DNA from: a virus
Direction: 5' to 3' (one strand)
Length of the DNA: 64,000 nucleotides
Virus record (IMG/VR): IMGVR_UViG_3300045988_183361
Shown here: in pieces, positions 2,327-56,588 of the stretch
Layout: each line of letters opens with the position of its first letter
Position numbering within the stretch: the first letter of the stretch is position 1
The notes under the pieces: model-generated
What the model was told of the DNA's origin: nothing
What the model saw: only the letters and a program-made list of their open reading frames with translations
Databases searched by the model: none
Made by a program: the position numbers and the translations under genes

Positions 2327-3586
2327 TTAAATTACCAAGGTCTGTATCATTTCAGTTGACCTTGCCATTATGCGTTTACAATTACTCAATTTAGGTGTCT
2401 TGTATCCTTTTGGCATTGCCGAAAAATCAACCTTGTTACCATCTATATCCATGAGAACTGCATATCCAGTGGACATTCTACCCTTGATAAAATATTTGTT
2501 TCCAAAGTATCGAACTTTGTCAAATTTTCTAAAGCCACAAATCTTATCAGTGATAATAGGCTGTTCTGAACGAATCCCTTTTGTTTTTTGAAAATCACCA
2601 TCTGAAATGCATTTCTTTTTGTAAAGGTTGGATTTTACAGTAAATATATTGCCTTGTGTTGCAATCGTACAGGCATCATAATAATGTTCTTTGTCAATGC
2701 CAAGAAGCAAACGGTTAGCTTTTGTCACATATCCGAAGGTCTCAACTGCATCTGGATATAATTTAAAAAGCTGTTTACGAATAGAGTTCATCTGTGTGGC
2801 ATATTTAAGATTACCTTTAACTTTACCACTCAATTTGGGGTTAATTTTTCCACTATGTAAATCTTTATGACAGGTATGACACAGAGTAATTAGATTACTT
2901 TCTTCATCAGAACCCCCCTGACTACGAAATAAAATATGATGAACTTCTAACTTACTATCCTTATGTTTGCCTTTACAATATTGACAAGTATAATTATCTC
3001 GATTAAGAACCATCGCTTTGGTATTCTCAAACCCATAATTAATACCTTTCTGATAACCCCAATGTTTAATTTTAGGATTAGCAAGATTTGGATTTTTCAT
3101 AAGGTGAGTATCAAACTGACCTGTCTCAAATACCATTTCTGTAATCGGAAGAATAAATTTAATATATTTTATCTCTTTAACATGACTATGAAGCTTACTC
3201 TGCATCGTAGGGCTAAATCTATCATTCTTAATAGAATTAGCACGATTTAACCATCTTGCTTTTCTATAACGAGCTTTACGATTTCGTCTGTTTCTACGAT
3301 ACTTTGCTCTTTGTGTCATTTTGCCGGTAATGTCGTTTCTTATAACAACTTCCGACATATAGATAATATCTCCATTGTCTTTGCTTACAGAAGTGCCAAT
3401 AGTTCCGCTTCCGGTATCTACACCAAGAGTTAAGTCTTGAGTGTAATTTGTTGTTTCATAAGTCAATTTAATTGTAAATGGCTCACGTTTCTTAACTTTT
3501 GCTTTGCTTTGTTTAAGTAACAATCTTGCTATAGAGTTACTACAGGGCATTAGTGGTTTACCATCTTGTGAAATCACATAAACCAT
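2327..3586 (-). CDS. iscB: IscB RNA-guided nuclease (PLMP, RuvC-I, Arg-rich bridge helix, RuvC-II, HNH, RuvC-III)
   Basis: motifs read from translation: DGKPLMP; LGVDTGSGTIG; RAKYRRNRRNRKARYRKARW; FETGQFD; CQYC..HHI..N..LCHTCH; HYYDA; strong SD AAGGAGG. Confidence 0.85.
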   Translation of the reverse strand: MVYVISQDGKPLMPCSNSIARLLLKQSKAKVKKREPFTIKLTYETTNYTQDLTLGVDTGSGTIGTSVSKDNGDIIYMSEVVIRNDITGKMTQRAKYRRNRRNRKARYRKARWLNRANSIKNDRFSPTMQSKLHSHVKEIKYIKFILPITEMVFETGQFDTHLMKNPNLANPKIKHWGYQKGINYGFENTKAMVLNRDNYTCQYCKGKHKDSKLEVHHILFRSQGGSDEESNLITLCHTCHKDLHSGKINPKLSGKVKGNLKYATQMNSIRKQLFKLYPDAVETFGYVTKANRLLLGIDKEHYYDACTIATQGNIFTVKSNLYKKKCISDGDFQKTKGIRSEQPIITDKICGFRKFDKVRYFGNKYFIKGRMSTGYAVLMDIDGNKVDFSAMPKGYKTPKLSNCKRIMARSTEMIQTLVI

Positions 3587-3858
3587 AAATAAGTTCCTCC
3601 TTATAAATACTCTACTTAATAGTAGGTGATGCGTACTTTGTCGTACTGTTTACCATACGATTGTTCCGACTTCAACTCGACAATGATATAAAGGCTTTTA
3701 TGTACATATCACAAGGCTGTTCTTACTCTGACCTAACTTAAATATGTACGATAGAGCAACGGTCTGTTGCGTCAACCGAAGGTATCATAACCTAAATATC
3801 GTAGTATCCATTTCTGAATACTTAGTCTGGTGAACCATTTAACAGAAGCCCACTACCT
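3587..3858 (-). ncRNA. putative omega-RNA (guide-RNA scaffold) of the IscB element
   Basis: 272-nt non-coding stretch immediately 5' of iscB on the same strand, clearly GC-richer than its surroundings, multiple stable hairpins; matches the known IscB locus architecture. Confidence 0.5.
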
Positions 3859-4800
3859 TTAGGTGGTGGGTAGTTCACTTAATTCACCTGATTCTTTGTT
3901 AAATATAAATATATCTGAACTCAGATAATCTTCTTCTTCCTGAATACCAAATATCTTTAATGCCATTTGAATTTCTTCAGGAGTAAATTCATTGTATTTA
4001 CATATCAACAGAATATGTGCTGTAACAGGAACAATGTATAAATTTGTTTTCAGTTTCTCTGAAATATTCTTAAGCAAATTATTATTCAGAATTGCACTTG
4101 TGTTATAAAAGTCAATTATATTTTGAATTGCATATATTCCTTTAATACATTTGCTCTCAAACCCATCAGAATTACTTAGAGAAAATAATTCTTTCTTTGT
4201 TTTTTCATAATTATCATCATCTGCCAGTTGCGTCAAAAAATAATCACCTAATACACTGATAAAATATTTGTTGGAATATATTGAATGAATTGCAAGATTG
4301 TACAATTCGTTTTCATCAATTTTCAGTATGTCTCTCATATAGTTATTATCAATTACAAACATTGTACCTTCTGAATTTTCTTTAGGTATGATCACATTAT
4401 AAATTATTTCGAACTCATAAAATGGCCTATGAGGAATACCGCTTAAATCTTCCATATTGTCCGGCTTTTGTATTAATTGAGGTATAATATAGTGTTTTAT
4501 ATCATTTAAATTAATTTCTGGAGCTAAATTATTAAGTTTATATTCACTACCATTAGAATTTTTGTTTCTATAAAATGCTTCAGATATTGACAATGCAATT
4601 TCTTCTATTGACGAATTATTTAAATATTGTTTATATAATTGATTTAATTTAAATTCTAAGGGACACATAAACTGATTTTTAGAATGAAAAATAAGCTTAT
4701 CTGATGTGCAAACTATATCTGTTGGTGTAATATCTTCAATATTTTGAAGTAATTCGAATTTAAGATGTTTAAGAAAATCTTCGTAATTCATTTTTTGCAT
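3859..4800 (-). CDS. hypothetical protein
   Basis: ORF track; SD AAAGGAGAATTAATTAT; TGTCATAT box at 4837-4852. Confidence 0.6.
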   Translation of the reverse strand: MQKMNYEDFLKHLKFELLQNIEDITPTDIVCTSDKLIFHSKNQFMCPLEFKLNQLYKQYLNNSSIEEIALSISEAFYRNKNSNGSEYKLNNLAPEINLNDIKHYIIPQLIQKPDNMEDLSGIPHRPFYEFEIIYNVIIPKENSEGTMFVIDNNYMRDILKIDENELYNLAIHSIYSNKYFISVLGDYFLTQLADDDNYEKTKKELFSLSNSDGFESKCIKGIYAIQNIIDFYNTSAILNNNLLKNISEKLKTNLYIVPVTAHILLICKYNEFTPEEIQMALKIFGIQEEEDYLSSDIFIFNKESGELSELPTT

Positions 4801-4852: not shown

Positions 4853-4997
4853 AATTATTATTTTACATAAAATAATTGATGTGTGTTAAAATAAGACAGC
4901 AACTAAATGTAAATGCCTTTTATTTATTAAAATATCCCGTTTTTGTGTTTTTCTAAGCACTTTATTGGGTATACTATGCCTTCACTTGTAAAAAATA

Positions 4998-6081: not shown

Positions 6082-7110
6082 TTACATAAAAGATTGTATA
6101 CTATATCCTTTCCGTCTGAAACGAACTCTAATCTTTTTTATTGCTTTTGATTCAATCTGTCTGATTCGTTCTCTGGATACATTCCATTCAGTACCTATAT
6201 CTTGTAAAGTTTTAACTTTTGAGCCATATCCCATTCTACCCTTAATTACATATAATTCTCTAGGAGTGAGACAATCTTCAACTTCTTTCCAAAGCAGTTC
6301 TTTCATTTCTTTTTGAATAATCGTATCTTCAACTTTAGGTTCAGGAGCTTCTATATAATCAGCCAAACATGAATCGTCATGGCCTTCATCACTTTGAATA
6401 GGTGCATCTAATGAAACCAATTCATTAAAACTCTGAATATGCACAAGCATTTCTTTAGTTAAAAGAGGATATCTTTGTTTTACTACATCATATAATTCAT
6501 CAATTGTAGGTTTTCTTTGAAGTTTATTAGTTAAATCCACAAATGTAGTCTTAACAAAAGAATCCTGTTCTCTTACATGTACAGGGAATCTAACTAATAA
6601 ATCATAATTGGCTAATTCTCTATATATACTCTGTCTAATCCAATGAGTTGCATAAGTTGAAAATGCATATCCTAATTTATAATCAAACATTTGTATAGCT
6701 CTGTATAACCCGAAAATACCGGCCTGACATAAATCATCCATTTCAAAACTTTGCGTTTTAGCTGTAACAGCTTTAGCAATACTGATGACTAAACGCATAT
6801 TAGATAAAATCAATTTTTCGGTTATTTCTTTTTTCTTTTTAGGATGTTTTTTTATCTCTTCAAATAATTTAAGAGTTTCATCTTTGGATAAAACCGGATA
6901 ATCAGCGAATGATTTAATATAATAAGTTATATTATTTTCTAATAATAGTTTCTCTTTTTCATTTAAAATCTCTTTATCATTTAAAATATCGGTATAATTA
7001 TCCTCTGATAAAATATTTATGTTTTCTATTGGTTTATTTGTATCAAATAATTCATCAATATATTCATCTTTATTGTTTTTTTTATTTAATAATAAATTCT
7101 TATCTGCCAT
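6082..7110 (-). CDS. sigma-70 family RNA polymerase sigma factor (regions 2 and 4 present)
   Basis: region 2-like YAFSTYATHWIRQSI; region 4.2 HTH LQDIGTEWNVSRERIRQIESKAIKKIR. Confidence 0.85.
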   Translation of the reverse strand: MADKNLLLNKKNNKDEYIDELFDTNKPIENINILSEDNYTDILNDKEILNEKEKLLLENNITYYIKSFADYPVLSKDETLKLFEEIKKHPKKKKEITEKLILSNMRLVISIAKAVTAKTQSFEMDDLCQAGIFGLYRAIQMFDYKLGYAFSTYATHWIRQSIYRELANYDLLVRFPVHVREQDSFVKTTFVDLTNKLQRKPTIDELYDVVKQRYPLLTKEMLVHIQSFNELVSLDAPIQSDEGHDDSCLADYIEAPEPKVEDTIIQKEMKELLWKEVEDCLTPRELYVIKGRMGYGSKVKTLQDIGTEWNVSRERIRQIESKAIKKIRVRFRRKGYSIQSFM

Positions 7111-7521: not shown

Positions 7522-8433
7522 TTATTGCTCCTTAATTTCTATATTGATATTTTCAAAACACTTAATTACAAAATAAATTAAACTCATTATGCAGACTATT
7601 AAAATGCATACCTGTAAATATATATTTGTTATAAAAAACGTAAATGGTATTAATGCCACACAGTTTATTAGAATATGATATAAGCTGCTAAGTTTAATAC
7701 CATATTTATCTCTTACAGCACCTAACAAATATCCGCCAAAAGCATATATAGGGAATAAAATAAAATTAAAATGAATTATTCCAAATAAAACTGCTTGGAT
7801 TATATTTGCACATAATTTATTGTTGCTTGCTTTATATGCATAGCCATAAATTATATATCTAAAAGTCAATTCCTCAATAATAGGTGCCACAAAAGTTGCT
7901 ATTATTGTAGATATAATTGTTTTTATTCCTAAACTTCCATAATCAATATCTGATACATTTACAAAATGCATTTGAATTCCTGAAATAAGCTGCAATATTA
8001 CAGAAATTAATATGAAACAAAATGCAAAATTCCAATTTACTACTAATTTATTTTTCATAAACAAATCTTTTTTATAATTGTAAAATGAGCTTTTTATACA
8101 AATAAGGCACATAACAAACATTAATGTATATGTTGATATTGTGTAAATTAATCGAAATCCTTCATAATCTATTTTAGTTGAAATTCCTCCTGCATCATTC
8201 ATATACATATTTAATAGACTGTCTATAAATGTTGCAATAAACATTGAAAATAAAATTATAAAAACAGAAATAATAAATGGAATAAAAATCTTTATATACT
8301 GTTTTGATTTTGAAAAGAAAGAATTACTTTTCATTTTGTTTTTCACCATAAAATCCATATAAGAATTTAAATCATGCTTATTTTTTTTATTTCTTAATTC
8401 CTTAATATTACTGTTATTGTTACTAAGTATCAT
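7522..8433 (-). CDS. CPBP-family (CAAX/Abi) intramembrane metalloprotease
   Basis: multi-TM; IIEELTFRYIIYGY (EExxxR) and FGIIHFNF (FxxxH) motifs. Confidence 0.7.
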   Translation of the reverse strand: MILSNNNSNIKELRNKKNKHDLNSYMDFMVKNKMKSNSFFSKSKQYIKIFIPFIISVFIILFSMFIATFIDSLLNMYMNDAGGISTKIDYEGFRLIYTISTYTLMFVMCLICIKSSFYNYKKDLFMKNKLVVNWNFAFCFILISVILQLISGIQMHFVNVSDIDYGSLGIKTIISTIIATFVAPIIEELTFRYIIYGYAYKASNNKLCANIIQAVLFGIIHFNFILFPIYAFGGYLLGAVRDKYGIKLSSLYHILINCVALIPFTFFITNIYLQVCILIVCIMSLIYFVIKCFENINIEIKEQ

Positions 8434-8476: not shown

Positions 8477-8545
8477 TTTTAAAAATCTTTACATAAAAAA
8501 ATACCGCTGCAATAAACAGCGGTAAAACATAAAATAAATATTAAA

Positions 8546-10231
8546 TTAGCATTTGCGTACTATTGAAGGTGCTGACATATCAGGGTTAATGAATTTCTTG
8601 CATAAATGTTCAATTCCGGTTGTTGAATCAAGCCAATATAAATAATCCCCGTCATTATCTACCAGATATTCATTAATAGAATCAAGAACATCGTTTACTT
8701 CGGAAACAGTACATATAAATCTGTATGAAGACTTATTTTTCTTTAAAGGTTTAACAGACTTAACAATAATCTGATATACAGTTTCGTCATCTGAAGATCT
8801 AAAATCATCTACTTGAATTTTTCCTGATAAACATAATTTAGCATCATTAACAAGTAAGTCTCTAATATTTGCATAATCTTTAGAAAAACATACACCATTA
8901 ATAGAACCTGTTTTATCTTCTACCTCAAAAGTTACCCATTCGTATCCATTTCTATCCTTTCTTACAACAAGATTTTTAATTATACCAGATACATCGTTAA
9001 CTTCTGTTGAAATATCAGAAATGGGATCTGTATAAATATTATACTCATCAATTGGATGCCCTGTAATATAAACACCTAACACTTCTTTTTCATCATTTAG
9101 AATCTGACCTAAATCATCTTCTACATAATCAATATCTATATTTTCAAGATCATCTTCTAAGCTTTCTATAACTGTCTTAGCTGAATTGATACGTTTAATT
9201 ATGGAATCCTTAGTTGGCATCTTTTTTGAAGTAACTTGAAAGGAAATATTTTCTTCTGAAATTCTTTCCTTAAACTCATCAAGATCAATATAATCTTCCA
9301 CAAATTCAATAACTTTACTTGCGTTTTCAATAAACTTACTCTTCTCTCTGATTTTCTTAATTGTATCCTGAATTTCTTTCATACAAATCATATCTAATGA
9401 TATCATTGTTCTTGTATAACCAAGGCAATCGAAAGCACCTGCTTTAATTAAGGAACTTAATGCTTCTGCATTAATATTTGTTCGTTTGATAAAATCCTTA
9501 ATATCAGAATATTCTCCATTAACATTTCTATCTTCAATAATTTTAGCTGCTTCTGATCCAACATTCTTAATATTACTCAGACCATACAAAATGTTCCCAT
9601 CTACAACATCACAATGTAAATTTGAAGCATTAATGTCCGGAGGCAATACCTTTACTCCAAAATCAAGGGCATCACTAATATCATCAGCGACTTCATCAAT
9701 CTTATCAGTATGATTTATTACATTTGTAAGATAATAAGCCGGATAATAATACTTAAGAAAAGCAGTCCAATATGATGTAACAGCATAAGCAGTAGCATGT
9801 GACTTATTAAACGCATACTTAGCAAAGTCAACCATCGCATCCCAGATTTTATGAGCAATTTCTTCTGATATTCCATTTGCAATACAACCTGGTACTAATG
9901 CTTCATTTTCTTTTTTAGTATCAGCATTACCATATACAAAAGTGTGTCTTTCAGCATCAATCTCATCCTGATGTTTTTTTGACATAGCTCTACGGACTAA
10001 ATCAGAACGCCCCCATGTATATCCTGCTAAATCACGAACAATCTGCATTACCTGTTCCTGATAAACTATCTGTCCATAAGTAGTTGACAAAATTGGCTCT
10101 AATTGAGGACATAAATATTTAATCTTAGATGCATCCTTTTTACCTTCTATGAAATCAGGTATAAACTTTTCAGGACCAGGACGATATAAAGCATTCATTG
10201 CTATTAAATCTTCAATACCTGTTTTATTCAT
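8546..10231 (-). CDS. dnaE: DNA polymerase III alpha (DnaE-type), C-terminal part as an independent gene
   Basis: NALYRPGP, YGQIVYQEQVMQIV, fingers/OB-like regions; own TGTCATAA box, SD AAAGGAGAAA and ATG. Confidence 0.85.
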   Translation of the reverse strand: MNKTGIEDLIAMNALYRPGPEKFIPDFIEGKKDASKIKYLCPQLEPILSTTYGQIVYQEQVMQIVRDLAGYTWGRSDLVRRAMSKKHQDEIDAERHTFVYGNADTKKENEALVPGCIANGISEEIAHKIWDAMVDFAKYAFNKSHATAYAVTSYWTAFLKYYYPAYYLTNVINHTDKIDEVADDISDALDFGVKVLPPDINASNLHCDVVDGNILYGLSNIKNVGSEAAKIIEDRNVNGEYSDIKDFIKRTNINAEALSSLIKAGAFDCLGYTRTMISLDMICMKEIQDTIKKIREKSKFIENASKVIEFVEDYIDLDEFKERISEENISFQVTSKKMPTKDSIIKRINSAKTVIESLEDDLENIDIDYVEDDLGQILNDEKEVLGVYITGHPIDEYNIYTDPISDISTEVNDVSGIIKNLVVRKDRNGYEWVTFEVEDKTGSINGVCFSKDYANIRDLLVNDAKLCLSGKIQVDDFRSSDDETVYQIIVKSVKPLKKNKSSYRFICTVSEVNDVLDSINEYLVDNDGDYLYWLDSTTGIEHLCKKFINPDMSAPSIVRKC

Positions 10232-10267
10232 TTTAAATTTCTCCTTTCAATTCATAACTATATAATT

Positions 10268-10283
10268 TATGACAGAAAATTAA
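10268..10283 (-). promoter_or_regulatory. TTTTCTGTCATAA box for the dnaE C-terminal gene
   Basis: terminator, box, SD, ATG 10231. Confidence 0.5.
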
Positions 10284-10307
10284 AAAAAGCGTCCAATTTT
10301 GGACGCT
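10282..10307 (-). terminator. intrinsic terminator after gene 10318..10623
   Basis: GCGTCCAAAATTGGACGC hairpin followed by a U7 run on the minus strand. Confidence 0.6.
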
Positions 10308-10317
10308 TGCATGAATA

Positions 10318-10623
10318 TTAAAAAGAATACTTGTTACATATATTTTCTTTTATATAAGTGATCAAATTTTTAGCATAATCTATTCTGTCTTTTAATTTAT
10401 CAATATCATTAATATCATATGAAACATTACCAGTAATACTAATATAAAAATCATCTTTTATGGTTTTAATTTCAATATCATAATATGGAATCTTTGGAGT
10501 AAAAAAGAATCTTATGACTTTACCTGTTCTTGAATCTCTTCTTAATAGAATTTTATATGTTTTATTATCGTATTCATCTATTATCCATGGACCGGATTCA
10601 TATGTTCTAATAAAAGTTACCAT
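10318..10623 (-). CDS. hypothetical protein
   Basis: ORF track. Confidence 0.5.
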   Translation of the reverse strand: MVTFIRTYESGPWIIDEYDNKTYKILLRRDSRTGKVIRFFFTPKIPYYDIEIKTIKDDFYISITGNVSYDINDIDKLKDRIDYAKNLITYIKENICNKYSF

Positions 10624-11204
10624 TATCTTACTTCTTCCTCTCTGTTATCTTTATTAATTTCAGTATGAATTACATCTGGCATAATTTTATCTTCATCATC
10701 TTCTCCGCCTAAATCTAAATCAATATCTGATAGTTCATTTGTGTCAATATTGTTTGTTATATTACTAATATTAACACTTTTACAATTTTGAGTCATTGCC
10801 TTTATAACATCATCTATAGTTTTAGCATCTCTACCGATTCCGTCAAGATAAAAAGCAGCCGTTATCTGGGCGCAAAAATCTGCGATTATATGTCTATCAG
10901 TTGTTTCAGGGCAAAACTTAGGAACATTATAATATTCACAATCTCTATTGATTTGGGAACACGCAGCTATTGCAGCTTCATGTTTAATTCTCCGATTTTT
11001 ATCCATAGACTGAATAGCTTCTCGTAATTCTTCTCCCTTAAGTGTAGCATATTTAATTGGAGTTGAATAGTTTTGATGATAAACAATCTGTACATATTCT
11101 CCAAATGCGGCCATATTGTAATTTAACATATCTAAATCATTCTCTCTATATTCATTATCTGGCGAATTTATTGCATTTACTAATTCCTTAAATTCTTTAA
11201 TCAT
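10623..11204 (-). CDS. hypothetical protein (acidic C-terminus)
   Basis: ORF track; TGTCAT box at 11244. Confidence 0.5.
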   Translation of the reverse strand: MIKEFKELVNAINSPDNEYRENDLDMLNYNMAAFGEYVQIVYHQNYSTPIKYATLKGEELREAIQSMDKNRRIKHEAAIAACSQINRDCEYYNVPKFCPETTDRHIIADFCAQITAAFYLDGIGRDAKTIDDVIKAMTQNCKSVNISNITNNIDTNELSDIDLDLGGEDDEDKIMPDVIHTEINKDNREEEVR

Positions 11205-15780: not shown

Positions 15781-16539
15781 CTATGAGCATAACTTCTTAA
15801 GGTTATTTCTCATACCGGCTGACTCAAACTGGAAAACATTCTTAGTTCTTCCTTTTGCATATACTTCTTTGTATACCTTATCAGCTTTAGGACCCTCTAA
15901 TGGAATATTCATTACATCAATTACTTCTCCTGTATCTCTCTGAATCATTCTGAGTGTGTCAGTAATAATTGTAAGAGTTTTTAATCCAAGAAAATCCATT
16001 TTTAATAATCCATTAGCTTCGCACTGAATCATGTCCATTTCTGTAGTTTTAATTCCCTTTTTTCCATCTCTAATAGGAATATAATCAGTAACATCATTAC
16101 TATCATAAATAATAACACCTGCGGCATGTTGTGCGTATGTCGTAAGCATACCTTCACAATGAGCTGCAATATTAAGAATAGAAATAGCATCTGGATTACT
16201 ATTATATTCATCCTTTAAGAAATCTAACAAAGAAATGCTGTCCTGAATATTAATGCCTAATTCATCAACCTTATTAGTATCTTTCATGCCAACAATATCT
16301 TCAAAATTAGTTGCTTTAGCAGGCACTTTCTTACGAATCTGATCTCCTAAAGATAAGAATTTCTTTTCATCATCATAAGCTTTCTTTCCATAATATCTTG
16401 CAGCATCTCTGATAGCACCTTTAGCCTGCTGTCTTGATTCTGTAATAATTCCAACAACAGCTTCACTACCATATTTAGCTCTTACATACTCAATTGTCTT
16501 TTCTCTTACTCCAAGAGCAAGATCACTATCGATATCCAA
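15781..16539 (-). CDS. dnaE: DnaE-type Pol III alpha, middle segment (exon 2 / palm-thumb)
   Basis: begins DIDSDLA (the PDxD DID.DF catalytic motif), ends FQFESAGMRNNLKKL; followed by its own terminator. Confidence 0.8.
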   Translation of the reverse strand: MDIDSDLALGVREKTIEYVRAKYGSEAVVGIITESRQQAKGAIRDAARYYGKKAYDDEKKFLSLGDQIRKKVPAKATNFEDIVGMKDTNKVDELGINIQDSISLLDFLKDEYNSNPDAISILNIAAHCEGMLTTYAQHAAGVIIYDSNDVTDYIPIRDGKKGIKTTEMDMIQCEANGLLKMDFLGLKTLTIITDTLRMIQRDTGEVIDVMNIPLEGPKADKVYKEVYAKGRTKNVFQFESAGMRNNLKKLCS

Positions 16540-17477
16540 ATATACCCCTACTTTCGTAGTACTTTAACACTTGTATAAGTGGGATTAGACTATATCTCAA
16601 TATAATATTGTTAATATTATATTTCAACGCACTTCCAACTGTAACCATTCTCAGTTGTACTCCTTAAAAAGGATAGTCGTTACACTTTAAAATAAATAAT
16701 ATTATATACGAACAATTTTTAAGTCATTCCATTTTAAATATTTATGCATTGAGGAATAACTTGCGTTATATTTTTCTTTAGCATATCGAGCTGCTGCTAA
16801 TATGCTTTCAAATCTATCAATTAATATATCTCCTTTATATAATTTACAACACTTATAATTTCTTACAGGAGACATAGTTTTATAACTATCATATAAATTG
16901 TCTTTTCTAGTACACCATTCTAAATTATTCACCTTACAATTTTGTTTATTTTTGTCTTTATGATTAACTTCTGGTAGATTATAAGGATTAGGAATAAAAT
17001 TCATCGCAACTAATCGATGCAATAAAAATTTTTTATTATCTAATCTTATCATCCTGTAATTCTTTTTACTATCTAAAAAAGGTTTAAGTTGTCGAATTTT
17101 CCCTTGTTTTATACTAAAAATCTTTCCATATGAAGTTATGTAATATTCGTGGTGATTTTTAATTTCTACTATTTTTTCACCTTTTTCAAGGAATGATGTA
17201 AAATTGATATAATCTATCATAAATATACACCTCCTTATTTATATAATATTATTTATAATCTTAGCACGGTATCGCCTGCTATCCTTCAATATCTTTTATA
17301 TAAAAATACGAGGACCGTAGGTTCTCTTACGAAGCTGCTTCGTCTATGGGTTAAGCTATATATCCTGTTGTGACACTTTATATAGCAGTCTTATTCAACT
17401 TCTACCGTTAGCACTTAATAATAAAATATTAAGCACACCTCTGAGTTAGAGTCCACGCTGAACGCCCAATATATTTA
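16540..17477 (-). ncRNA. group I intron interrupting dnaE, with HNH homing-endonuclease ORF
   Basis: about 940 nt inserted exactly between ..ERVSMP and DIDSD.. of the DnaE active site; GC-richer structured flanks at 17221-17477 and 16540-16701 around an internal ORF with its own SD. Confidence 0.6.
16702..17220 (-). CDS. HNH homing endonuclease (intron-encoded)
   Basis: NHKDKNKQNCKVNNLEWCTRKDN HNH-type motif; SD AAGGAGGTG; sits inside the intron. Confidence 0.8.
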   Translation of the reverse strand: MIDYINFTSFLEKGEKIVEIKNHHEYYITSYGKIFSIKQGKIRQLKPFLDSKKNYRMIRLDNKKFLLHRLVAMNFIPNPYNLPEVNHKDKNKQNCKVNNLEWCTRKDNLYDSYKTMSPVRNYKCCKLYKGDILIDRFESILAAARYAKEKYNASYSSMHKYLKWNDLKIVRI

Positions 17478-19270
17478 GGCATACTTACTCTTTCTGGATT
17501 TAAGAATCGTTCAAAAATCAGATTATACTTAAATGGATCAATTCCGGTAATACCAAGTAAATATGTAACCAATGAACCGGCACCTGAACCTCTTCCAATG
17601 CCTATTCCAATTCCGGTATTATAATTGTGAGTCTTAACATACTCTTTTGCACCTTCAATTGTTAAAGGTACTTCTGATAGTTTATCCATAGGCACTAATC
17701 CACAAATTCTTCCATATTCCAGAAAGTCCTTTACAATTAAATGATAATCGGCAAAGCCCATCTGAATGATAATATTAAGTTCGTATTCCATTCGTTTCTG
17801 ATGTTCTTCATCCCATCCTTTTCCGTTAGGATATCTCCAATTAATTCCCTTAATTGCTTCAGATCTTAATAATTCGTTTGAGTCCTTGTTCTTATCAAAT
17901 ACTGGATAATGATTAGATTTTTCTGGAATATAAGCACATCTTTTTCCAATTACATTTAAGTTATTGAGTGCTTCTGCAACCTGATCATCTGTTAATATAG
18001 CTGATAAGGCCTGAGCAAGTTCGTAAGGTGTTTTTACATATAACTCTTTATCTGATTCCGACTCACTTATCTTAATAAATCTTAAAAATTTAGCTACATT
18101 ACGCATATCAATACTTCTATCAGAATTATCTGCCATATGTGCATCATTAGCAGCAACTAATGGGATATTATGCTTCCTTGCTAACTGAGCTAACACAGGA
18201 TATGTTCTGCTTTCCATTTCAAGCCCATGATTCTGAACTTCAATGTAATAATTACCTGCTCCAAAAATTTCCTGATAAAAAAGCATTGTCTTTTCTGCTT
18301 CAGACATTAATTCTATTGGGCTTTTCTTTAATGATTCATAATGCTGTATCTTATTTTCATGATTAATATATTCCTCTACTTTAAGACTTATATCCTTTAA
18401 CTCGGCTTTCTTAGCATTAACTAATTTTCTGACATTAGGAATTTTATCTTTAGCTTCCAGAATTTTATTATTTATCTCCTCATATTCGTTAATCAGTTTA
18501 ATAAGCTCTGGATCATCATCATTTAAACACTTTCTTGCATCTCTTAATTTTCTTGAAATCTGTGTTCTTTCTGATTTAAGTTCCTTGGAATCACGAATAT
18601 TAATCAATTCATCTAAATCTGCCGATACCCTTTCAAATTCATCTTTAGCTGAAAGATATTCTTTATCATCAGGACTTATACAATCACGTATAACTAGCTC
18701 GTCTTTTTCAGTAGTATGCTGCTGTGCTTTTCTTTCTCTGTTAATCATTTTATCCAAAACATCATCTGATAATAATTGCAGAGCTGGTGCACCCGAAACG
18801 CAAGCAGAAGTTGCTATTATATCACCGTTAAAGTTATATTTCTTTAAATCTGATATTGTAATAACAGGCTTTCCCATTCTTTTTTCAGAAGCCTTAGAAT
18901 TTAACTTATCAATAATATGCTTGCCTCTTTCTGAAGTGGCTAACATAATCATATGGCCAATCTGCTCATTTATCTTAAATGGTGGCACTTCAATATAAGC
19001 CTCTACGCCATAAATGATATTAAAAGGATGTTCCTCAGTACTTATTTTCTTAGCGTAATCAATACATGTTTGCATTGCTGAAAATGATGCATGGTCCGTA
19101 ACAGCAAATTTAGTATATCCTGCATTAAATGCAGCATCTAAATAACTTTTAGGTTCATCTACGGCATCAAACAAAGAGCCTCCTGGATGGTTATGTTCAC
19201 ACACTGTAACTCCTGACTCAATAACCTTTTTTGTTAATTCTCCAATTTTTACATGTTCAAACATTGACAT
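17429..19270 (-). CDS. dnaE: DnaE-type Pol III alpha, N-terminal PHP + palm segment (exon 1; coding part probably ends near 17478, remainder is intron read-through)
   Basis: PHP motifs [20 protein letters not shown]; palm [34 protein letters not shown]. Confidence 0.85.
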
Positions 19271-20665: not shown

Positions 20666-21715
20666 TTACTCTATGGTTATAATGTCTCCTCTATCTCTTG
20701 TTTCAGAAATAACAAGAGTCTTTATCTCCATAGTATTTGTATTAGCAAGAGAAATTCTTGTAACATGATCCTTAGATGTAATATCCACAATTACATTATA
20801 ACCTGCAAGCTCAGCAACTATCTTATCTGGGATCTTATATGTGATATCATTAATATACCACTTGCCTGAAGAAGCTTTAATCAGGCTTGCATTATATCCC
20901 TTTGAAATTGATTCTGGAACACTGTCAATTGCTGTTGTCTTATAAAGACTTAATGAATGACCTTCAGAAGCAACAAATCTTAATGTAATATAATCATCTT
21001 CCTTGATAACTCCGTCAGAATCGACTACTGTATCTGCTTCAATTGCGAAAATTGTTTCATTAGGTGCCTTAACAGAATCTACAGCCTTAATTGGCTCCGC
21101 AAAAGAAACATGATCAACAACTGCATCAGACATTACATCATATAACATGATTGCTGCAGCATCAAAGATATTATCTGTTTCAATAGTTCCATCTTCAAGC
21201 TTCTTATCCTTAGTATAAGTTCTTGAATATGTCATATATAACTGCATCTTATTCTCAGAAGAAGCAATGATTGTAACTTCTGGAATAGATCTTCTGATAA
21301 GCTTATTAAACTTATCTGACTCAACTGTATATGACATAATATCGAAATAACCTTCTCTTGGTTCTCTTGGTTCGACAGATAAAATAAGTCTTCCTGCAAC
21401 ACCTGCAATAATACTATTAATTACAAGTGAACCCTGTTCTGTAGCAGGGACTCCATTCTTAAGCAAAATTCCGTTTTTTACAGTATATCCAGTTGGAACA
21501 TCTGGAATATTAGGATCATCAATCAGCTTGTAAGCTATTGCATTATTAGCTGTAATTACTGCAGTAACCGAATCATCAAGTGAACCATCCTCCTTGATTA
21601 ACTTGGCTGTTCCTTTAATGGAATCACCTGAACCATCAACATTAATTACCTGGTAATTCTTACGGTCTACCTTGTTTAATACTGTTACATTAGTCTTAAT
21701 CTTGTTTATTCTCAT
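20666..21715 (-). CDS. hypothetical protein, paralog of 19382..20533
   Basis: as above. Confidence 0.55.
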   Translation of the reverse strand: MRINKIKTNVTVLNKVDRKNYQVINVDGSGDSIKGTAKLIKEDGSLDDSVTAVITANNAIAYKLIDDPNIPDVPTGYTVKNGILLKNGVPATEQGSLVINSIIAGVAGRLILSVEPREPREGYFDIMSYTVESDKFNKLIRRSIPEVTIIASSENKMQLYMTYSRTYTKDKKLEDGTIETDNIFDAAAIMLYDVMSDAVVDHVSFAEPIKAVDSVKAPNETIFAIEADTVVDSDGVIKEDDYITLRFVASEGHSLSLYKTTAIDSVPESISKGYNASLIKASSGKWYINDITYKIPDKIVAELAGYNVIVDITSKDHVTRISLANTNTMEIKTLVISETRDRGDIITIE

Positions 21716-21908
21716 GATTAAGTCCTCCTTTTGTTTTTTATTTAATACAAATTACATATGACAGAAAAATAAAAATAAACAAAAAATTGGACTTGTTTTT
21801 TCGCAAATCCTATTTTTATAATATCAAACAATATTGGCAAACCCCGAAGCTTCAGGCTTCGTGGGATAAGCCGATTTTTTATACTTTAAACAAAATTATA
21901 TTTTAGCT

Positions 21909-21917
21909 CTGTCATAT
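21909..21917 (+). promoter_or_regulatory. only plus-orientation copy of CTGTCATAT, inside the TnpB element 48 nt before the tnpB ATG
   Basis: GCTCTGTCATATTAAT, then SD GAAAGG and ATG 21965. Confidence 0.35.
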
Positions 21918-21964
21918 TAATTATAGGTTAAATCCTAAATTTTTATGAAAGGCCGGGCTTTAAT

Positions 21965-23314
21965 ATGGACATAAAATCAAGCTATGCAGTTGAAGTTAAG
22001 AATATTAACAAATTGTTCAATCCAACAATTAAAATTTATAATCAGGCTGTAACTTTTTGCATCCAGGTGTTTGAAAATGAGTGGTCTGTATTAAAAGATA
22101 TTAATGACTCAAAAATACAATGTGGTGTTGCAAGGAACTTAATTCATTCTACAAAGTCAAATAAAGCTAAGTATTCAGAGTTTGATAAATTGTTCCACAA
22201 AATGCCCAGCTATTGTACTACAGCAGTCATCAATGCATCTCTCGGTGTACTTAATTCTTATCATTCAAACTTACAGAACTGGTATGATGAAGGCTGCAAA
22301 GGTAATCGTCCTACATTGCAGATTCATACCAATAAATATCCAGTCTTTTATAAAGACAACATGTATAAGTGGGCTGATACAAAAAATGCCATACTGCTCA
22401 AGCTTTTTATAAACAATGACTGGCAGTGGGTAAAGCTGCGCTTAAAACATACTGATGTGCAAAGTATTAAAAAGCACAGTATCAATGCAAAAATTTCTGT
22501 GCCTACATTAGAGAAAAAGCATAAGAAATGGTTTCTGCGATTTGCGTTTGAAAGCAAAGCAATTTTAAATAAGACACCATTATCTAAGCAGAGAATCCTA
22601 GCCGTTGATCTGGGTATTAACACAGATGCTATCTGTTCAGTTATGGATTATTATGGAACTGTCCTTGCAAGATGTTTTATCAATCATGCAAGTGAAAAAG
22701 ACTATATTAAACATAATCTAAACAGGATAAAAAAGTATCAGGCTGCAGGGCAAAAAGATGTGGTCCGGAAGTTATGGAGTTTAGTTAAGAATTACAATAA
22801 TGAGCTTGCGTCAAAAACTGCTAATGCCATAGTGGATTATGCCAGACAATTAAATGTCGATGTTATAGTATTTGAACATCTGGATATGAAAGGCAGGAAG
22901 AGAGGATCCAAGCGCCAGTTATTACACATGTGGAATAAGAATACTATACAGAGAATTGTCACTCATAAGGCTCATTTATCAGGTATCCGCATCAGTCATA
23001 TATGTGCAAGGAACACAAGTAAGTTAGCATATGACGGTTCAGGATATGTACTAAGAGGAAAAGACGCAGGATTGCTTACATATGAACTTTGCAGATTCCA
23101 GACTGGCAAAATATATAACTGTGATTTATCTGCATCTTATAATATAGGAGCCAGATATTTTATTCGTGAAATCGAGAAATTATATACAGGGAAATCCATA
23201 TGTAAAAAAATAAACATATGGTCTGATATCCAGGCGAAAGTACCTGAATGTCAAAGAAGAACACAAAATACCCTTTCAACACTAAGAGCTATACATCAAT
23301 GTTTAGCAGTTTAG
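21965..23314 (+). CDS. tnpB: TnpB (OMEGA RuvC-like RNA-guided nuclease)
   Basis: RILAVDLGINTDA (RuvC-I), VIVFEHLDMKG (RuvC-II E), Cys zinc-finger, NCDLSASYNIGARYF (RuvC-III). Confidence 0.85.
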   Translation: MDIKSSYAVEVKNINKLFNPTIKIYNQAVTFCIQVFENEWSVLKDINDSKIQCGVARNLIHSTKSNKAKYSEFDKLFHKMPSYCTTAVINASLGVLNSYHSNLQNWYDEGCKGNRPTLQIHTNKYPVFYKDNMYKWADTKNAILLKLFINNDWQWVKLRLKHTDVQSIKKHSINAKISVPTLEKKHKKWFLRFAFESKAILNKTPLSKQRILAVDLGINTDAICSVMDYYGTVLARCFINHASEKDYIKHNLNRIKKYQAAGQKDVVRKLWSLVKNYNNELASKTANAIVDYARQLNVDVIVFEHLDMKGRKRGSKRQLLHMWNKNTIQRIVTHKAHLSGIRISHICARNTSKLAYDGSGYVLRGKDAGLLTYELCRFQTGKIYNCDLSASYNIGARYFIREIEKLYTGKSICKKINIWSDIQAKVPECQRRTQNTLSTLRAIHQCLAV

Positions 23315-23503
23315 TGTAAAAAGGGTATGGATTCAGTCGCCTTCAATATAAAAATTGATTGTATTTAGTTTTAATGTGGTATGTCAGAGCGTAAGTTCTG
23401 ATGCGCTAAGTTAAAACTGTATAAGATGGTGGATAAAATTATGCTGAGTACAAGGCATAAGTGAATCTCCGAATCTAAAGATTCGGAGTGTGTTCAATAA
23501 TTG
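23315..23503 (+). ncRNA. putative TnpB reRNA/omega-RNA and right-end region
   Basis: structured GC-richer region overlapping and following the tnpB 3' end, with RE hairpin. Confidence 0.4.
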
Positions 23504-24121
23504 TTAAAATTTATTTAAATTAATTGATTGCTGATATTTACTTCTTTTATCATTTATTTTATATGATTTTTGCTTTTCTGTATCATACTTTTTTGCCAAA
23601 GAATCTACATATTCATCAAAATCAGTTCTTAAATTCTGAGAATTATTATTAGCATAATCAGCTTTTTCTAATTCTTCATTTACAAGATCTGATAGTGATG
23701 TCTTAAGAACATGCTCCATTTTTTCCTTTTCAGTTTTTCTTTTTTCATTATTCTTACGAATTATATTACCGATAACTATTATCGCAATAACAATAACTAT
23801 AAAAATACCTATACAAATTAATATACCCTTAATCGGAATATTAGTTAAAACATCTGATACGCTATTTCCAATATTTTCTGTAGCTTCTGTAGTACTTTCC
23901 GAATCTGTTTGTGAAGTATTATATTCGGTTCTTAAAATTGAAATTAAAATAGAAAATATAAATCTTGAAAAAATCAAGATTGTCCCCACTATACAATTAC
24001 CAACTCCATTAGATACTCCTGACTCATCATCATTTAAAACCGATTTAAGTATATTAGAAAAACCTGTAGCAACAATGATAACCCCTAAGCAGCCTAAACA
24101 TGTGCTTATTACATTTAACAT
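23504..24121 (-). CDS. membrane protein (2-3 TM) with charged C-terminal tail
   Basis: ORF track; hydrophobic segments. Confidence 0.5.
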   Translation of the reverse strand: MLNVISTCLGCLGVIIVATGFSNILKSVLNDDESGVSNGVGNCIVGTILIFSRFIFSILISILRTEYNTSQTDSESTTEATENIGNSVSDVLTNIPIKGILICIGIFIVIVIAIIVIGNIIRKNNEKRKTEKEKMEHVLKTSLSDLVNEELEKADYANNNSQNLRTDFDEYVDSLAKKYDTEKQKSYKINDKRSKYQQSINLNKF

Positions 24122-24810: not shown

Positions 24811-24931
24811 TTGTTAAATCCTTTCTTAATTAAAATATTTTTTAAAGACATTTAATATATGACAGATTTAATTACTCATTTTTTTACATAAAAAAAAGAG
24901 GTGTTTTTTGCCACCTCTTTTTTAAAATAAT

Positions 24932-32777: not shown

Positions 32778-32811
32778 AAATTTTATTCCTTTCTTTTAGT
32801 AAAAATAAGCA

Positions 32812-32868
32812 TGAACTACTCACAAACGACATTAGTCGGATGGAGCTTTCTTGCTTGATTGCGATAAA
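32812..32868 (+). repeat. dispersed hairpin repeat, copy 4
   Basis: ATGAACTACTCACAAACGACATTAGTCGGATGGAGCTTTCTTGCTTGATTGCGATAA; in the flotillin leader. Confidence 0.75.
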
Positions 32869-32994
32869 CATCTTTTAAATTATTTTGTTTACGCCAGTCA
32901 TTAGTAATATGACAGATATTTAATTTATTTTTTTTACATAAAAAATGGCTATGTTTTCACATAGCCATTCAGGAGGGAGGTTTAAAATTTATTG

Positions 32995-39674: not shown

Positions 39675-39718
39675 GTTTTTGTTGAACAATTTTTTACATA
39701 AATTAATTTAATTTATAT

Positions 39719-40340: not shown

Positions 40341-42113
40341 TTAATAATCAATATCATCGAAAATAATCTGTGGAGTTGTTACGCCATTCCATATATTTTC
40401 ACTTAATCTTCCATATAAAGTTAAAACAGTTGGTTCTCCAAGCTTTTCAAATTTTTCAACTAACCCGCCAAAATTAATTGCGTTAGCCTGATTATTAAAG
40501 AGTTTTAAAACCTTTTTTTCAGCACCCAAAAGCTGATAATATACACCTTTTCTTAGTTCTGTCATATAAGAAATTTTATATCTTGGCTCTTCAAATCCTT
40601 TGCCAAAGATATAATTATGAAAGGCTTCCTGCTCTTCCTTTACCTGCTCTACTGTAATATCGTAATCATAATACTTGTAATTGAACTCTTTTGGCTTTTC
40701 TCCTGCAGCTTCATGTATAGCTTCAATAAACTTATCCATATTTTCAGCTTTAACTTCTGAAATACCTGCTGCATACGGATGTCCTCCATAATTACCCATA
40801 TACTGCTTAACCTGATCTAATAATAACTTCATATTAACATTTGCCCCTTCAATTTCTGGTGCTCTTGCAGAACCTTTATAGGCGGTACCATTATTTATTG
40901 GAGCAAATACAATAACAGAAGTATTGTATTCTTCCTGTAACTTACCGGCAATTAAGCCAATAACTCCCGGATGTATTTCTCCTTCCTTACCACATATAAC
41001 AATAGGATAGTCATTTTCCATATGAGCTTCCTCTATACGCTGTTTTAAAACAGGTAAAAGGTCATTAGTATATGCCTTTCTTCTTTCGTTTGCTTCTACT
41101 AGAACCTTTGCTTTTGCAATTGCTGTAACAAAGTCGTTGTCATTCTGAAGGAAAAGGTCTACTACCTGATTAGAACCAAAAGTTTCCAGTCTTGAAATAG
41201 CGTTAATGGTAGGACTTATTAAATAAGCTAAATCATCAGTTGTTACAACAGTTTCAAGATCAGGTTTAAGGCCTACAAGTAAGCAGAACATTCCGGTTGT
41301 ACGTCCAGAATTCTGTGTTAATGTAAATAACCCGTTCTTGAGTATTAAATAATTATCATATCCATATACTCCATTAATATTTTCAATTAAATTAACACTA
41401 TCACCAACAGTTGCGATAGCAGCAAGACCATTTATCTTATCTATTGTTTCATCTTTGATATACCATTCTGGCAAATTTAATTGCTTAATATGCTGAGCAA
41501 ATTTATATACAAGCCCTGCACCACAATAATCTGAGAATTTTGCACCACAATCAACTGCATGAGGATCAATAATTACATCTGCAGGTGGCAATATTTTTTT
41601 ATTGGTTTCGTCAGTAACTGGAAGGTGATGATCTAAAATAAGAACACTCCAACCTAATTCTTTTGCCTTTGTTATTGCGTCAAGAGCTGCGATACCATTA
41701 TCTACAGTTATTAACAATCCTGTATCATAATTTTTTATAACTGGTAAACCATGAATTGATATTTCATTACATAAATATTCTACAATATTTGCAGAAGCTC
41801 CATATCCATCTAATTCTCTATCTGGTATATACCATTTTACATCTGAGAATTTAAGGTCTAACAACATAAGATTTAATTCAGATGTTGAACATATTCCATC
41901 GGTATCATAATCTCCTATTATTCTAACTGGCTTATATTTAAATAAACTAAGTAAATTAAACGCCTTGTCAAAATCGGAAATTTTGTAATATTCAGATGTT
42001 TCTCTACCATTATTAAAATCAGCAAAATATTTATTTGCTTTTTCAATAAAATTTACCTCATCAGTATTTTTCTTCTTCCATGTTATACACATATAATTTG
42101 TTCTCCTTTTCAA
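40341..42113 (-). CDS. RecJ-like DHH-family ssDNA exonuclease
   Basis: IIGDYDTDGICS (DHH motif I), ILDHH (DHH motif III). Confidence 0.7.
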   Translation of the reverse strand: MKRRTNYMCITWKKKNTDEVNFIEKANKYFADFNNGRETSEYYKISDFDKAFNLLSLFKYKPVRIIGDYDTDGICSTSELNLMLLDLKFSDVKWYIPDRELDGYGASANIVEYLCNEISIHGLPVIKNYDTGLLITVDNGIAALDAITKAKELGWSVLILDHHLPVTDETNKKILPPADVIIDPHAVDCGAKFSDYCGAGLVYKFAQHIKQLNLPEWYIKDETIDKINGLAAIATVGDSVNLIENINGVYGYDNYLILKNGLFTLTQNSGRTTGMFCLLVGLKPDLETVVTTDDLAYLISPTINAISRLETFGSNQVVDLFLQNDNDFVTAIAKAKVLVEANERRKAYTNDLLPVLKQRIEEAHMENDYPIVICGKEGEIHPGVIGLIAGKLQEEYNTSVIVFAPINNGTAYKGSARAPEIEGANVNMKLLLDQVKQYMGNYGGHPYAAGISEVKAENMDKFIEAIHEAAGEKPKEFNYKYYDYDITVEQVKEEQEAFHNYIFGKGFEEPRYKISYMTELRKGVYYQLLGAEKKVLKLFNNQANAINFGGLVEKFEKLGEPTVLTLYGRLSENIWNGVTTPQIIFDDIDY

Positions 42114-47785: not shown

Positions 47786-47817
47786 AAATTATTACAATCC
47801 TTTCCATTATTAAATTT

Positions 47818-47874
47818 ATGAACTACTCGCAACTGACTATTGTCGGATGTAGTTTTCTTGCTATTCTTCGATAA
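47818..47874 (+). repeat. dispersed hairpin repeat, copy 6
   Basis: ATGAACTACTCGCAACTGACTATTGTCGGATGTAG...; in the uvrD leader. Confidence 0.8.
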
Positions 47875-47890
47875 AATCTTTTATTTAAAA

Positions 47891-47898: not shown

Positions 47899-47935
47899 AT
47901 TTATAGTGGATTTTTCTTACATAAAAAAGAGAAGC

Positions 47936-56358: not shown

Positions 56359-56588
56359 ACAAAAAGCTCCCACCATTAAGGTGAGAGCTTTAATCAAAGT
56401 TGCTAGTAGAATTGTAAAATTCTATTAAAGTGTATTTTTACAACAAAATTACCGGCTTTAACAAAAGTGCTAGTCTTTGAGGAGGCATATATGTATGCCT
56501 AATATATACCGACAATATTTTATCACATTGTAAATTATAATACAATATTGATTTAATTATTATATGACAGATTTTTGACTGCAAATTT

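Follow-up and report, generated by a model that had tools for sequence, protein, structure and literature searches.

How might a transposon-borne nuclease gene be expressed, and how might it spread, when it sits in a huge phage-like genome, antisense to its neighbours and with no transposase gene of its own? TnpB elements are frequent in phages (PMC12607003), and the roles and expression of TnpB in these genomes are largely unexplored. The question is raised here by a locus in the IMG/VR virus record IMGVR_UViG_3300045988_183361, a stretch of 64,000 nucleotides (nt) that is referred to below as the window; L-numbers denote loci retrieved for comparison. The locus holds an insertion sequence (IS) of the IS200/IS605 family with tnpB as its only gene, and its left end (LE) carries, on the plus strand, a copy of a short promoter-type box that the carrier uses on its other strand. 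A previous reading of the window from its letters only (hereafter the sequence-only reading) had noticed this copy and offered two explanations, namely adaptation of the element to the transcription programme of its carrier or chance. We consider it probable that the element belongs to a TnpA-less IS605 lineage of huge AT-rich gut phage-like genomes, in which the box would drive tnpB and its omegaRNA and the element would home by cutting empty sites.

The bounds of the element can be fixed by comparing occupied and empty alleles. The look-up for such alleles was queried with the neighbouring 205-amino-acid (aa) protein, whose gene is present in 714 blocks of the assemblies, and covered the 24 longest contigs, of which 22 are occupied at one fixed locus, with one empty place and one similar place besides. 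In the empty allele, on the 699-kb contig L017, the flanking genes are adjacent, tnpB is absent, and the junction reads cctatttttat up to the insertion point and taattAttaaaattt after it. Aligned to the window, this junction defines a 1,678-bp element at 21820-23497 (+), which replaces the bounds of 21800-23503 given by the sequence-only reading. Comparison of L017 with 15 occupied alleles shows that insertion occurred directly 3' of TTTAT (21815-21819, +), the transposon-adjacent motif (TAM), which abuts the left end on its 5' side, and that there is no target-site duplication, the empty site being seamless. TTTAT also stands 5' of the LE in L005, L001 and L198, and thus at three different sites; a sister lineage (L103) has TTTAC in its place. 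The insertion point lies 6 nt past the stop codon of the 205-aa phage gene and ahead of the intrinsic terminator of that gene (21789-21810, -; terminator scan). In the empty L017 allele this terminator follows the stop codon directly, and the IS now divides the gene from it. An exact search of IMG/VR for the empty junction gave no match.

Among the 15 occupied loci, 11 other copies are also 1,678 bp long: seven are identical to the studied copy, two differ from it by one single-nucleotide polymorphism (SNP), one by 3 and one by 14. One further copy measures 1,677 bp, and that of L005 1,679 bp. Many bacterial relatives (mostly from Lachnospiraceae and other Clostridia), as well as L107, have a Y1 tnpA directly upstream of tnpB. 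This distribution of the IS family points to Lachnospiraceae or other Clostridia as candidate hosts of the phage. The studied copy has no tnpA, so the element at 21820-23497 is a TnpA-less, non-autonomous member of the IS200/IS605 family. A protein identical to its TnpB was found in 224 blocks of the assembly collection, in human-gut samples, on contigs of up to 812 kb and in a constant gene neighbourhood; one contig with the identical protein belongs to the viral contigs of IMG/VR. No match to the element was obtained by megablast in 50,697 GenBank phage records, and the sole match of the 24-kb flank in the same records was one 683-bp unannotated fragment.

The box itself, CTGTCATAT, occurs 28 times in the window where 0.82 copies are expected from shuffles, and 26 of these copies lie on the minus strand, which is the gene strand. 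Nearly all of the minus-strand copies (24 of 26) fall outside open reading frames (ORFs) of at least 100 aa, and 19 are followed by a Shine-Dalgarno sequence (SD) and a start codon 28-62 nt downstream (median 35). Many stand directly after a terminator hairpin and T run. The 349-aa gene to the left of the IS (20666-21715) has one of the phage's own boxes ahead of it (21756-21764, -). Some boxes have TTATGTAAA about 20 nt upstream. A second conserved motif besides the box, TTATGTAA(A), is found about 20 nt upstream of a subset (4855-4875, 8480-8500, 24875-24895, 32925-32945, 39685-39700, 47908-47925 and 56580-56595, all on the minus strand), which suggests two promoter classes, one with TTATGTAA(A) and one with just a T run ahead of the box. 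A candidate reader of the box is encoded at 6082-7110 (-), where a diverged RpoD-like sigma-70 factor with regions 2 and 4 is found; its best NCBIfam matches, RpoD at about 180 bits, are far under the cut-offs.

Within the LE, GCTCTGTCATATTAAT is present exactly at 21906-21921 (+). The 10-nt box TCTGTCATAT occupies 21908-21917 and its 9-mer core 21909-21917, 47 nt ahead of the tnpB ATG, a distance that the phage's own boxes also show (28-62 nt), and like many of these it comes after a hairpin and a T run, here those of the LE. No plus-strand promoter of sigma-70 type was predicted from the LE start to the tnpB ATG. The sequence-only reading was thus right about the presence of the box, and its statement that this is the only plus-strand instance is correct for the 16-mer, to which there is no other plus-strand match in the window at up to 3 mismatches. 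It does not hold for the 9-mer, which recurs on the plus strand at 40559-40567, antisense within a recJ-like ORF (40341-42113). That second copy may be an antisense promoter and is probably due to chance.

Copies of the same lineage at other places show what has happened to the box over time. Besides the many copies at the same locus, they comprise L005 (98% aa identity), which has another left flank; L001-L004 and L187 (82%), at a different locus of a related genome; and L106 and L198 (59%), which adjoin a PARP gene of another related genome. In the window copy and in L005, L001, L003, L004, L187, L106 and L198, TCTGTCATAT stands 47-48 nt ahead of the ATG, and in L002 a single base differs (CTGTTATAT). 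The box is a conserved island in these copies, amid LE bases that have diverged to its left and right. A functionless 9-mer that arose by chance in AT-rich DNA, the second explanation of the sequence-only reading, is therefore hardly credible. It is true that shuffles predict about 0.4 plus-strand copies per window and that the copy at 40559-40567, inside a coding region, is probably one of them; but the same expectation scaled to the 145-nt LE is about 0.001, and the 10-mer has been kept in place at a tnpB synonymous divergence (dS) of 0.8 and down to 59% aa identity while the flanking LE bases changed. The solo left ends described below keep the box too.

Relatives that live elsewhere lack it. 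In the 170 nt upstream of tnpB, even TGTCATA is missing from all 76 GTDB bacterial loci (43-62% identity), and the box was found within 200 nt upstream of tnpB at none of 63 other IMG/VR viral loci (36-58% identity), nor upstream of tnpB in L101, L103 and L107 of a sister lineage with a 441-aa TnpB. The LE of that sister lineage passes from the hairpin to the ribosome-binding site (RBS) in about 50 nt, with no T run and no box; the studied LE is about 50 nt longer, and the extra part is the T run and the box. In L107, tnpB follows tnpA and a helix-turn-helix (HTH) gene, again without a box. All box-bearing IS copies, on the other hand, reside in genomes that have the box before other genes. 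Since the box is in all copies of the lineage and absent from relatives elsewhere, its presence tracks residence in box-carrying genomes. The comparison with other copies that the sequence-only reading had proposed thus supports adaptation of the IS left end to the transcription programme of its carrier, and the outcome that would have spoken for an intrinsic sequence, namely the same box in IS copies of unrelated hosts, was looked for and not found. We also observed that tnpB directly follows a small HTH gene of XRE type at five loci of the sister lineage (L101, L102, L021, L022 and L107); in L107 this gene lies between Y1 tnpA and tnpB, which gives elements of the sister lineage with the three-gene order tnpA-HTH-tnpB.

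These comparisons also bear on whether the box could be intrinsic to the IS, either as a site related to TnpA or TnpB or as an ancestral IS promoter, with its likeness to the phage boxes being coincidental or the phage boxes having been seeded by the IS. Every lineage copy has the box, including solo left ends that are now ahead of phage genes, and midpoint rooting puts the box-bearing P0040 lineage basal, which would allow for an ancestral box that the 441-aa clade has lost. Yet this would leave the box missing from all 76 bacterial, 63 other viral and three sister-lineage loci, the last with an LE that ends about 50 nt after its hairpin, and every box-bearing copy in a genome with the box before other genes. 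Seeding is further opposed by the 26 minus-strand phage boxes, whose likeness to the LE is confined to about 10 nt and near which no LE hairpin is found, so that they are not IS remnants. We regard an intrinsic box as quite improbable.

What the box does is a separate question, and from its sequence and placement we take it to be a putative promoter element. It could instead be another phage cis element whose function the IS copies, such as a binding site for a regulator or anti-terminator, or an RNA-processing signal. The spacing of about 20-24 nt to the upstream TTATGTAAA misfits the standard -35/-10 layout of sigma-70 promoters, and the sigma-70 scan does not call the box. However, the boxes are placed like promoters, after terminator hairpins and T runs and 28-62 nt before an SD and start codon, they are strictly strand-specific and occur about once per gene or operon, and the phage has its own RpoD-like sigma. 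For these reasons we give a non-promoter role a small chance.

That the LE is exchanged with the regulatory regions of the carrier is suggested by copies of it that stand alone. A pattern search for the LE T run and box retrieved solo LEs of about 105 nt and about 92% identity at other sites of the same phage family, without tnpB or a right end (RE); they are found in L175-L178, L182, L185, L189, L193 and L200 (e.g., L177, reverse, 7530-7800), and one IMG/VR contig contains both L176 and the full copy L105. Each corresponds to IS positions 1-105, that is, TTTAT and then the LE from its start through the box plus 7 nt, and after the box come a conserved non-coding segment, a terminator, a second box and a gene. 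In a second class (L180, L181, L183, L184, L188, L190, L191, L194, L195, L199 and L201), an LE-like hairpin and T run are joined to a typical putative phage promoter (TTATGTAAAAA, about 20 nt, CTGTCATAT), followed by an RBS and a gene, and the module stands right behind the stop codon of the preceding gene. Modules of this class resemble an IS end put to new use as a terminator-promoter cassette. Either the IS captured a promoter, or recombination between an IS box and a phage box left the solo LEs behind; whichever the direction of exchange, the LE box is interchangeable with the phage boxes. When the LE and RE were compared with the window by short-word BLAST, neither end had a second copy there and the LE segment with the putative promoter had no donor, the only matches being box-centred and of at most 25 nt.

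A conserved element of about 55 nt, ATCGnAnnAnAGCAAGAAAnCTnCATnC...TTGnGAGTAGTTCAT, follows some of the boxes (window 47786-47889 and 32778-32906, L177 5900-6036, L176 1180-1310; all on the minus strand). It is found in the leaders of UvrD-like and flotillin-like genes and after a solo LE. It has no match in Rfam, and its four copies offer only a short hairpin with little covariation.

The gene that the box precedes, tnpB (21965-23314, +; ATG start), is preceded by a GAAAGG RBS (21947-21952, +) that lies 12 nt ahead of the ATG at 21965 and is kept in 6 of 6 aligned LEs. As the sequence-only reading had stated, its 449-aa product is a TnpB, and judged by profiles and a predicted structure it is a divergent one. 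TIGR01766 scores 34.5, over its cut-off of 32, and NCBIfam guided_TnpB matches with an E-value of 1.8e-20 and a score of 73.6 that is under the cut-off of 100; Pfam OrfB_IS605 (19.6 against 30.5) and TNB (17.9 against 26.3) also stay under theirs. The precomputed family of the protein is PF27142, PHROGs has no family for it or for the neighbouring proteins, and its best solved relative is the TnpB of PDB entry 9nzp (E 3e-6). The AlphaFold (AF2) model is usable for residues 1-345, with a predicted local distance difference test score (pLDDT) below 50 at residues 346-449, which include the zinc-finger region. In a Foldseek search of the PDB with this model, the top 25 matches were Cas12f, Cas12g, Cas12h, Cas12k and TnpB (ISFba1, ISDra2), at a probability of 1.0 and E-values of 3e-12 to 6e-8; template modelling scores (TM-scores) were low (about 0.3), owing to domain placement and the poor C-terminus of the model.

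Residues D215 (AVDLG), E304 (VFEHLD) and D387 (NCDLSASYNI) correspond in the alignment to the catalytic residues of 9nzp, and 17 relatives have them without exception, which agrees with the intact RuvC-I/II/III proposed from the sequence. The intact zinc finger proposed with it was not borne out. The first CxxC is replaced by LAYDGSG (region TSKLAYDGSG...C-x9-C) and the second by C-x9-C; the first is missing in 17 of 17 aligned relatives, and the canonical CxxC...CxxC is absent family-wide. Against the 82%-identical L001 copy, the ratio of nonsynonymous to synonymous divergence (dN/dS) of tnpB is 0.11 at a dS of 0.8, which indicates a gene under purifying selection.

Both ends of the element fold better than shuffled sequences, as expected from the hairpins described in the sequence-only reading. 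In the LE, a subterminal hairpin followed by a T6 run (21875-21880) forms a terminator-like structure at 21833-21880 (+), of which the terminator scan matched 21855-21872 and the T run. The hairpin (21833-21875; z -3.3) has an outer stem ATTGGC/GCCGAT and an inner stem CCCGAAGC/GCTTCGTGGG; the stem can also be read as CCCGAAGC/GCTTCG(T)GGG, which resembles the RE stem CTCCGAATC/GATTCGGAG (hairpin 23467-23488; z -6.4). The LE hairpin and TAAGCCGATTTTTT are kept in all lineage members, and in the sister lineage the hairpin is present and the T run absent. Between lineages, the LE and RE hairpins co-vary (in L103 they are CCCCTTAGC and CCCCTGAGC).

The 3' untranslated region and RE had been predicted to encode the TnpB-associated RNA, the reRNA or omegaRNA, and covariation agrees with this. 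An RNAalifold consensus from the end of tnpB to the RE in 9 relatives has compensatory changes at 25 of 35 pairs, and the single-sequence fold of the window omegaRNA has a z of -4.8. The scaffold spans 23337-23497 (+; coordinates mapped from alignment columns), with an outer stem at 23337-41/23428-32, nested stems at 23369-23416 and 23386-23399, a hairpin at 23439-23460 and the terminal RE hairpin, after which comes GTGTGTTCAA; at the mapped RE boundary it ends in GTGTTCAA. An Rfam search at E ≤ 5 over 21600-23700 returned noise only, with no known omegaRNA family, RAGATH-18 or group I intron. With the RE boundary set by the empty and occupied alleles, the predicted guide, TAATTGTTAAAATTTA, begins directly 3' of the RE at 23498 (23498-23513, +) and not at about 23485-23503, the position first assumed. 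It overlaps the stop codon (23504-23506) and the last codons of the 205-aa phage gene, and the flank that contains it does not vary among the 15 occupied loci that still have this right flank, including L005. The predicted substrate of TnpB is thus TTTAT plus TAATTGTTAAAATTTA, and a search for the guide across the window found no other match at fewer than 2 mismatches.

The population structure of the locus is informative about spread. Twelve occupied genomes share a SNP-free core from 21650 to about 24226, which comprises the IS with 170 nt on its left and about 730 nt on its right, and the DNA adjoining this core belongs to two background haplotypes that are about 4-7% apart, with breakpoints at differing places. 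A shared core on diverged backgrounds is the pattern expected of co-conversion in homing, and the data fit it. The empty L017 allele has 11 private SNPs within the span of the core, including a G>A change at 23503, which is guide position 6 (the guide-side sequence of this allele is TAATTATT..., with A, not G, at 23503). Mismatches close to the TAM impair cleavage by TnpB. A concentration of the empty-strain SNPs at the junction was considered as a separate signal and rejected, as comparison with occupied strains shows that the whole region is mosaic and that the informative signal is the shared core.

The element also moves and decays. At least three insertion sites are occupied in related genomes. 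In L020 a decayed copy has 14 SNPs and a tnpB truncated to a 328-aa ORF, and IS fragments are present elsewhere. A rearranged IS in L196 (about 9300-11000, reverse) has the left flank of the window, a right third with about 10% divergence and a right flank, CAACCATCAGATCAG..., that is unrelated, and rearranged L005 (1-435) combines the right flank of the window with a different left flank. Such truncated, rearranged and fragmentary copies are signs of a selfish, recombinogenic element.

The same data have to be weighed for a domesticated tnpB, that is, a phage gene whose RNA-guided nuclease excludes IS-less competitors or serves some other phage function. Occupation of one fixed locus by 22 of the 24 longest contigs' copies, the identical protein in 224 blocks, the strong purifying selection and the putative phage-type promoter would all suit such a gene, as would the lack of a cognate tnpA nearby, for the sole tnpA in the window belongs to an element with a 23%-identical TnpB and a different RE hairpin. 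A domesticated gene would not, however, be expected to keep both transposon ends and the TAM intact and to take its guide from its own flank, as mobile copies do, nor to be polymorphic for presence, inserted at three or more sites and accompanied by decayed copies (the 328-aa ORF of L020, solo LEs and fragments) and by rearrangements as in L005 and L196. We think domestication unlikely, with the qualification that the domesticated and selfish readings overlap if homing also harms competitors.

The explanation that we consider probable, a box-driven, homing IS, can be set out as a series of steps. The LE box would be read by transcription machinery active during infection, for which the RpoD-like sigma at 6082-7110 is a candidate, so that tnpB and the omegaRNA, which run antisense to every gene around them, would have a phage-type promoter of their own. 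Plus-strand transcription arriving from outside would be kept off them by the LE hairpin and T run. TnpB with its omegaRNA would then cut the IS-less locus (TTTAT plus TAATTGTTAAAATTTA) in excision products or in co-infecting empty genomes, and repair from an IS-bearing genome would copy the IS, with the flanks closest to it, back into the cut locus; this is homing. A bolder version holds that the lineage is a specialist parasite of huge phages, which is TnpA-independent, has captured a phage promoter and spreads by omegaRNA-guided cutting and co-conversion, and whose LE is left behind or reused as a terminator-promoter cassette before phage genes and a small non-coding RNA. Taken as a whole, this version is tentative, and we are inclined to doubt it.

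Several points count against the box-driven homing explanation. One old insertion followed by ordinary recombination also predicts a shared core. Empty alleles are represented by only one distinct sequence and one similar place, and the guide mismatch is a single case (n = 1). The box may be something other than a promoter, and in a neighbour-joining tree the P0040 lineage is on a long branch, where a single gain of the box and its loss in the 441-aa clade both fit. The IS of L001-L004 is co-oriented with its neighbours, so that a promoter of its own is not strictly required there. Finally, the canonical zinc finger is missing and the Pfam and NCBIfam thresholds for TnpB are missed, so nuclease activity is assumed only.

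The studied IS shares the window with other mobile elements. The sequence-only reading had counted two OMEGA elements; there are three OMEGA genes, those for IscB, the studied TnpB and a third TnpB. The IscB gene (RRXRR and HNH domains, 419 aa; 2327-3586) is accompanied by a full-length HEARO RNA (3665-3878, 109.8 bits), so that the pair occupies 2327-3878 (-), directly downstream of a DUF5688 gene and with no box of its own. The third element (62487-64000, -) has a canonical TnpB of 431 aa (62487-63782), preceded by a Y1 tnpA that runs off the end of the window (63766-63993), and its RE hairpin (CGGTAATTCAATTACCG...GTAGTTCAC) bears no relation to the one in the studied IS. The TnpA of the third element was considered as a mobiliser of the studied IS; as its TnpB is 23% identical to the studied one and the RE hairpins are unrelated, this is unlikely. 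PolIII-alpha is split in the window (613 aa and 252 aa; 15781-19270, -) by an insert with an HNH_3 ORF (16702-17220) and is uninterrupted (849 aa) in L006 and L010 (4757-7306), so the insert is a second mobile one with presence/absence, either an intron or a free-standing homing gene. A separate 561-aa ORF (8546-10231, -) encodes the C-terminal domains of PolIII-alpha (finger, HHH, OB), about 5.5 kb from the N-terminal pieces.

The remaining gene content describes the carrier. Between 53977 and 60738 (-), a class A penicillin-binding protein (PBP; transglycosylase and transpeptidase) and GGDEF, HD-GYP-like and PARP-domain proteins are encoded in a row, and RecA, RecJ, two UvrD-like helicases and flotillin are encoded as well. 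This gene set looks bacterial; the contigs that contain it reach 812 kb and are classed by IMG/VR as viral, and the carrier is referred to here as phage-like.

The element and its parts are of known kinds, as it is a TnpB-only IS605-family element with an omegaRNA. As in other IS200/IS605 TnpB systems, insertion is 3' of a short TAM without duplication, the LE and RE have subterminal hairpins, the RuvC residues are D-E-D, a structured RNA covers the 3' end and the RE and takes its guide from the flank, and autonomous relatives have a Y1 tnpA. Unlike these systems, the studied IS has its carrier's promoter-type box and a T run in the LE, has lost the CxxC...CxxC together with its whole family, lacks tnpA, has no Rfam omegaRNA match and resides in a huge phage-like carrier. 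IStrons consist of a group I intron fused to an IS605 or IS607 tnpB in Clostridia. They resemble the studied element in being tnpB elements of Clostridia-type hosts that have evolved to fit their carrier, whereas the studied element is intergenic and antisense to its neighbours and its adaptation is a putative promoter; the idea that it is itself an IStron was dropped because Rfam shows no group I intron.

T-even homing genes use phage middle or late promoters. Like the free-standing homing genes seg and mob of T-even phages (PMC13565253), the studied IS places a selfish nuclease gene between conserved phage genes, and its nuclease is predicted to cut the allele without the element in a co-infecting genome; unlike them, it would recognise its target by a guide RNA rather than by protein, and it has transposon ends. 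"Non-restorative homing" of TnpB into homologous plasmids or co-infecting phages has been proposed (PMC13565253), with data for plasmids (bioRxiv 10.1101/2022.10.12.511977). The haplotype data similarly suggest that the IS spreads without TnpA to the corresponding site of homologous DNA, with the difference that the earlier work concerns plasmids and theory and that here homing is inferred from sequences of a natural phage population. TldR proteins, nuclease-dead domesticated TnpB repressors (PMC10705468), are likewise TnpB homologues fixed at a locus with a guide RNA adjacent, but the studied TnpB has an intact RuvC triad, a guide that is its own flank and retained transposon ends.

What appears to be new is the lineage-specific, conserved box of phage-promoter type, together with a terminator-like hairpin, in the LE of an IS, and a set of population data that is compatible with TnpA-independent homing between phage genomes, a process that, in its RNA-guided form and between co-infecting phages, has so far been mainly theoretical (PMC13565253). 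The studied IS is a concrete case of a transposon whose regulatory end matches the signals of its viral carrier and not those of a bacterium. With it, the TAM, guide and scaffold are defined for a compact predicted nuclease without the usual zinc finger. If homing is true, the IS would be a natural RNA-guided counterpart of the seg and mob homing genes of T4. The case also bears on how phage-borne TnpB lineages may persist long enough to yield phage-encoded effectors of Cas12 type.

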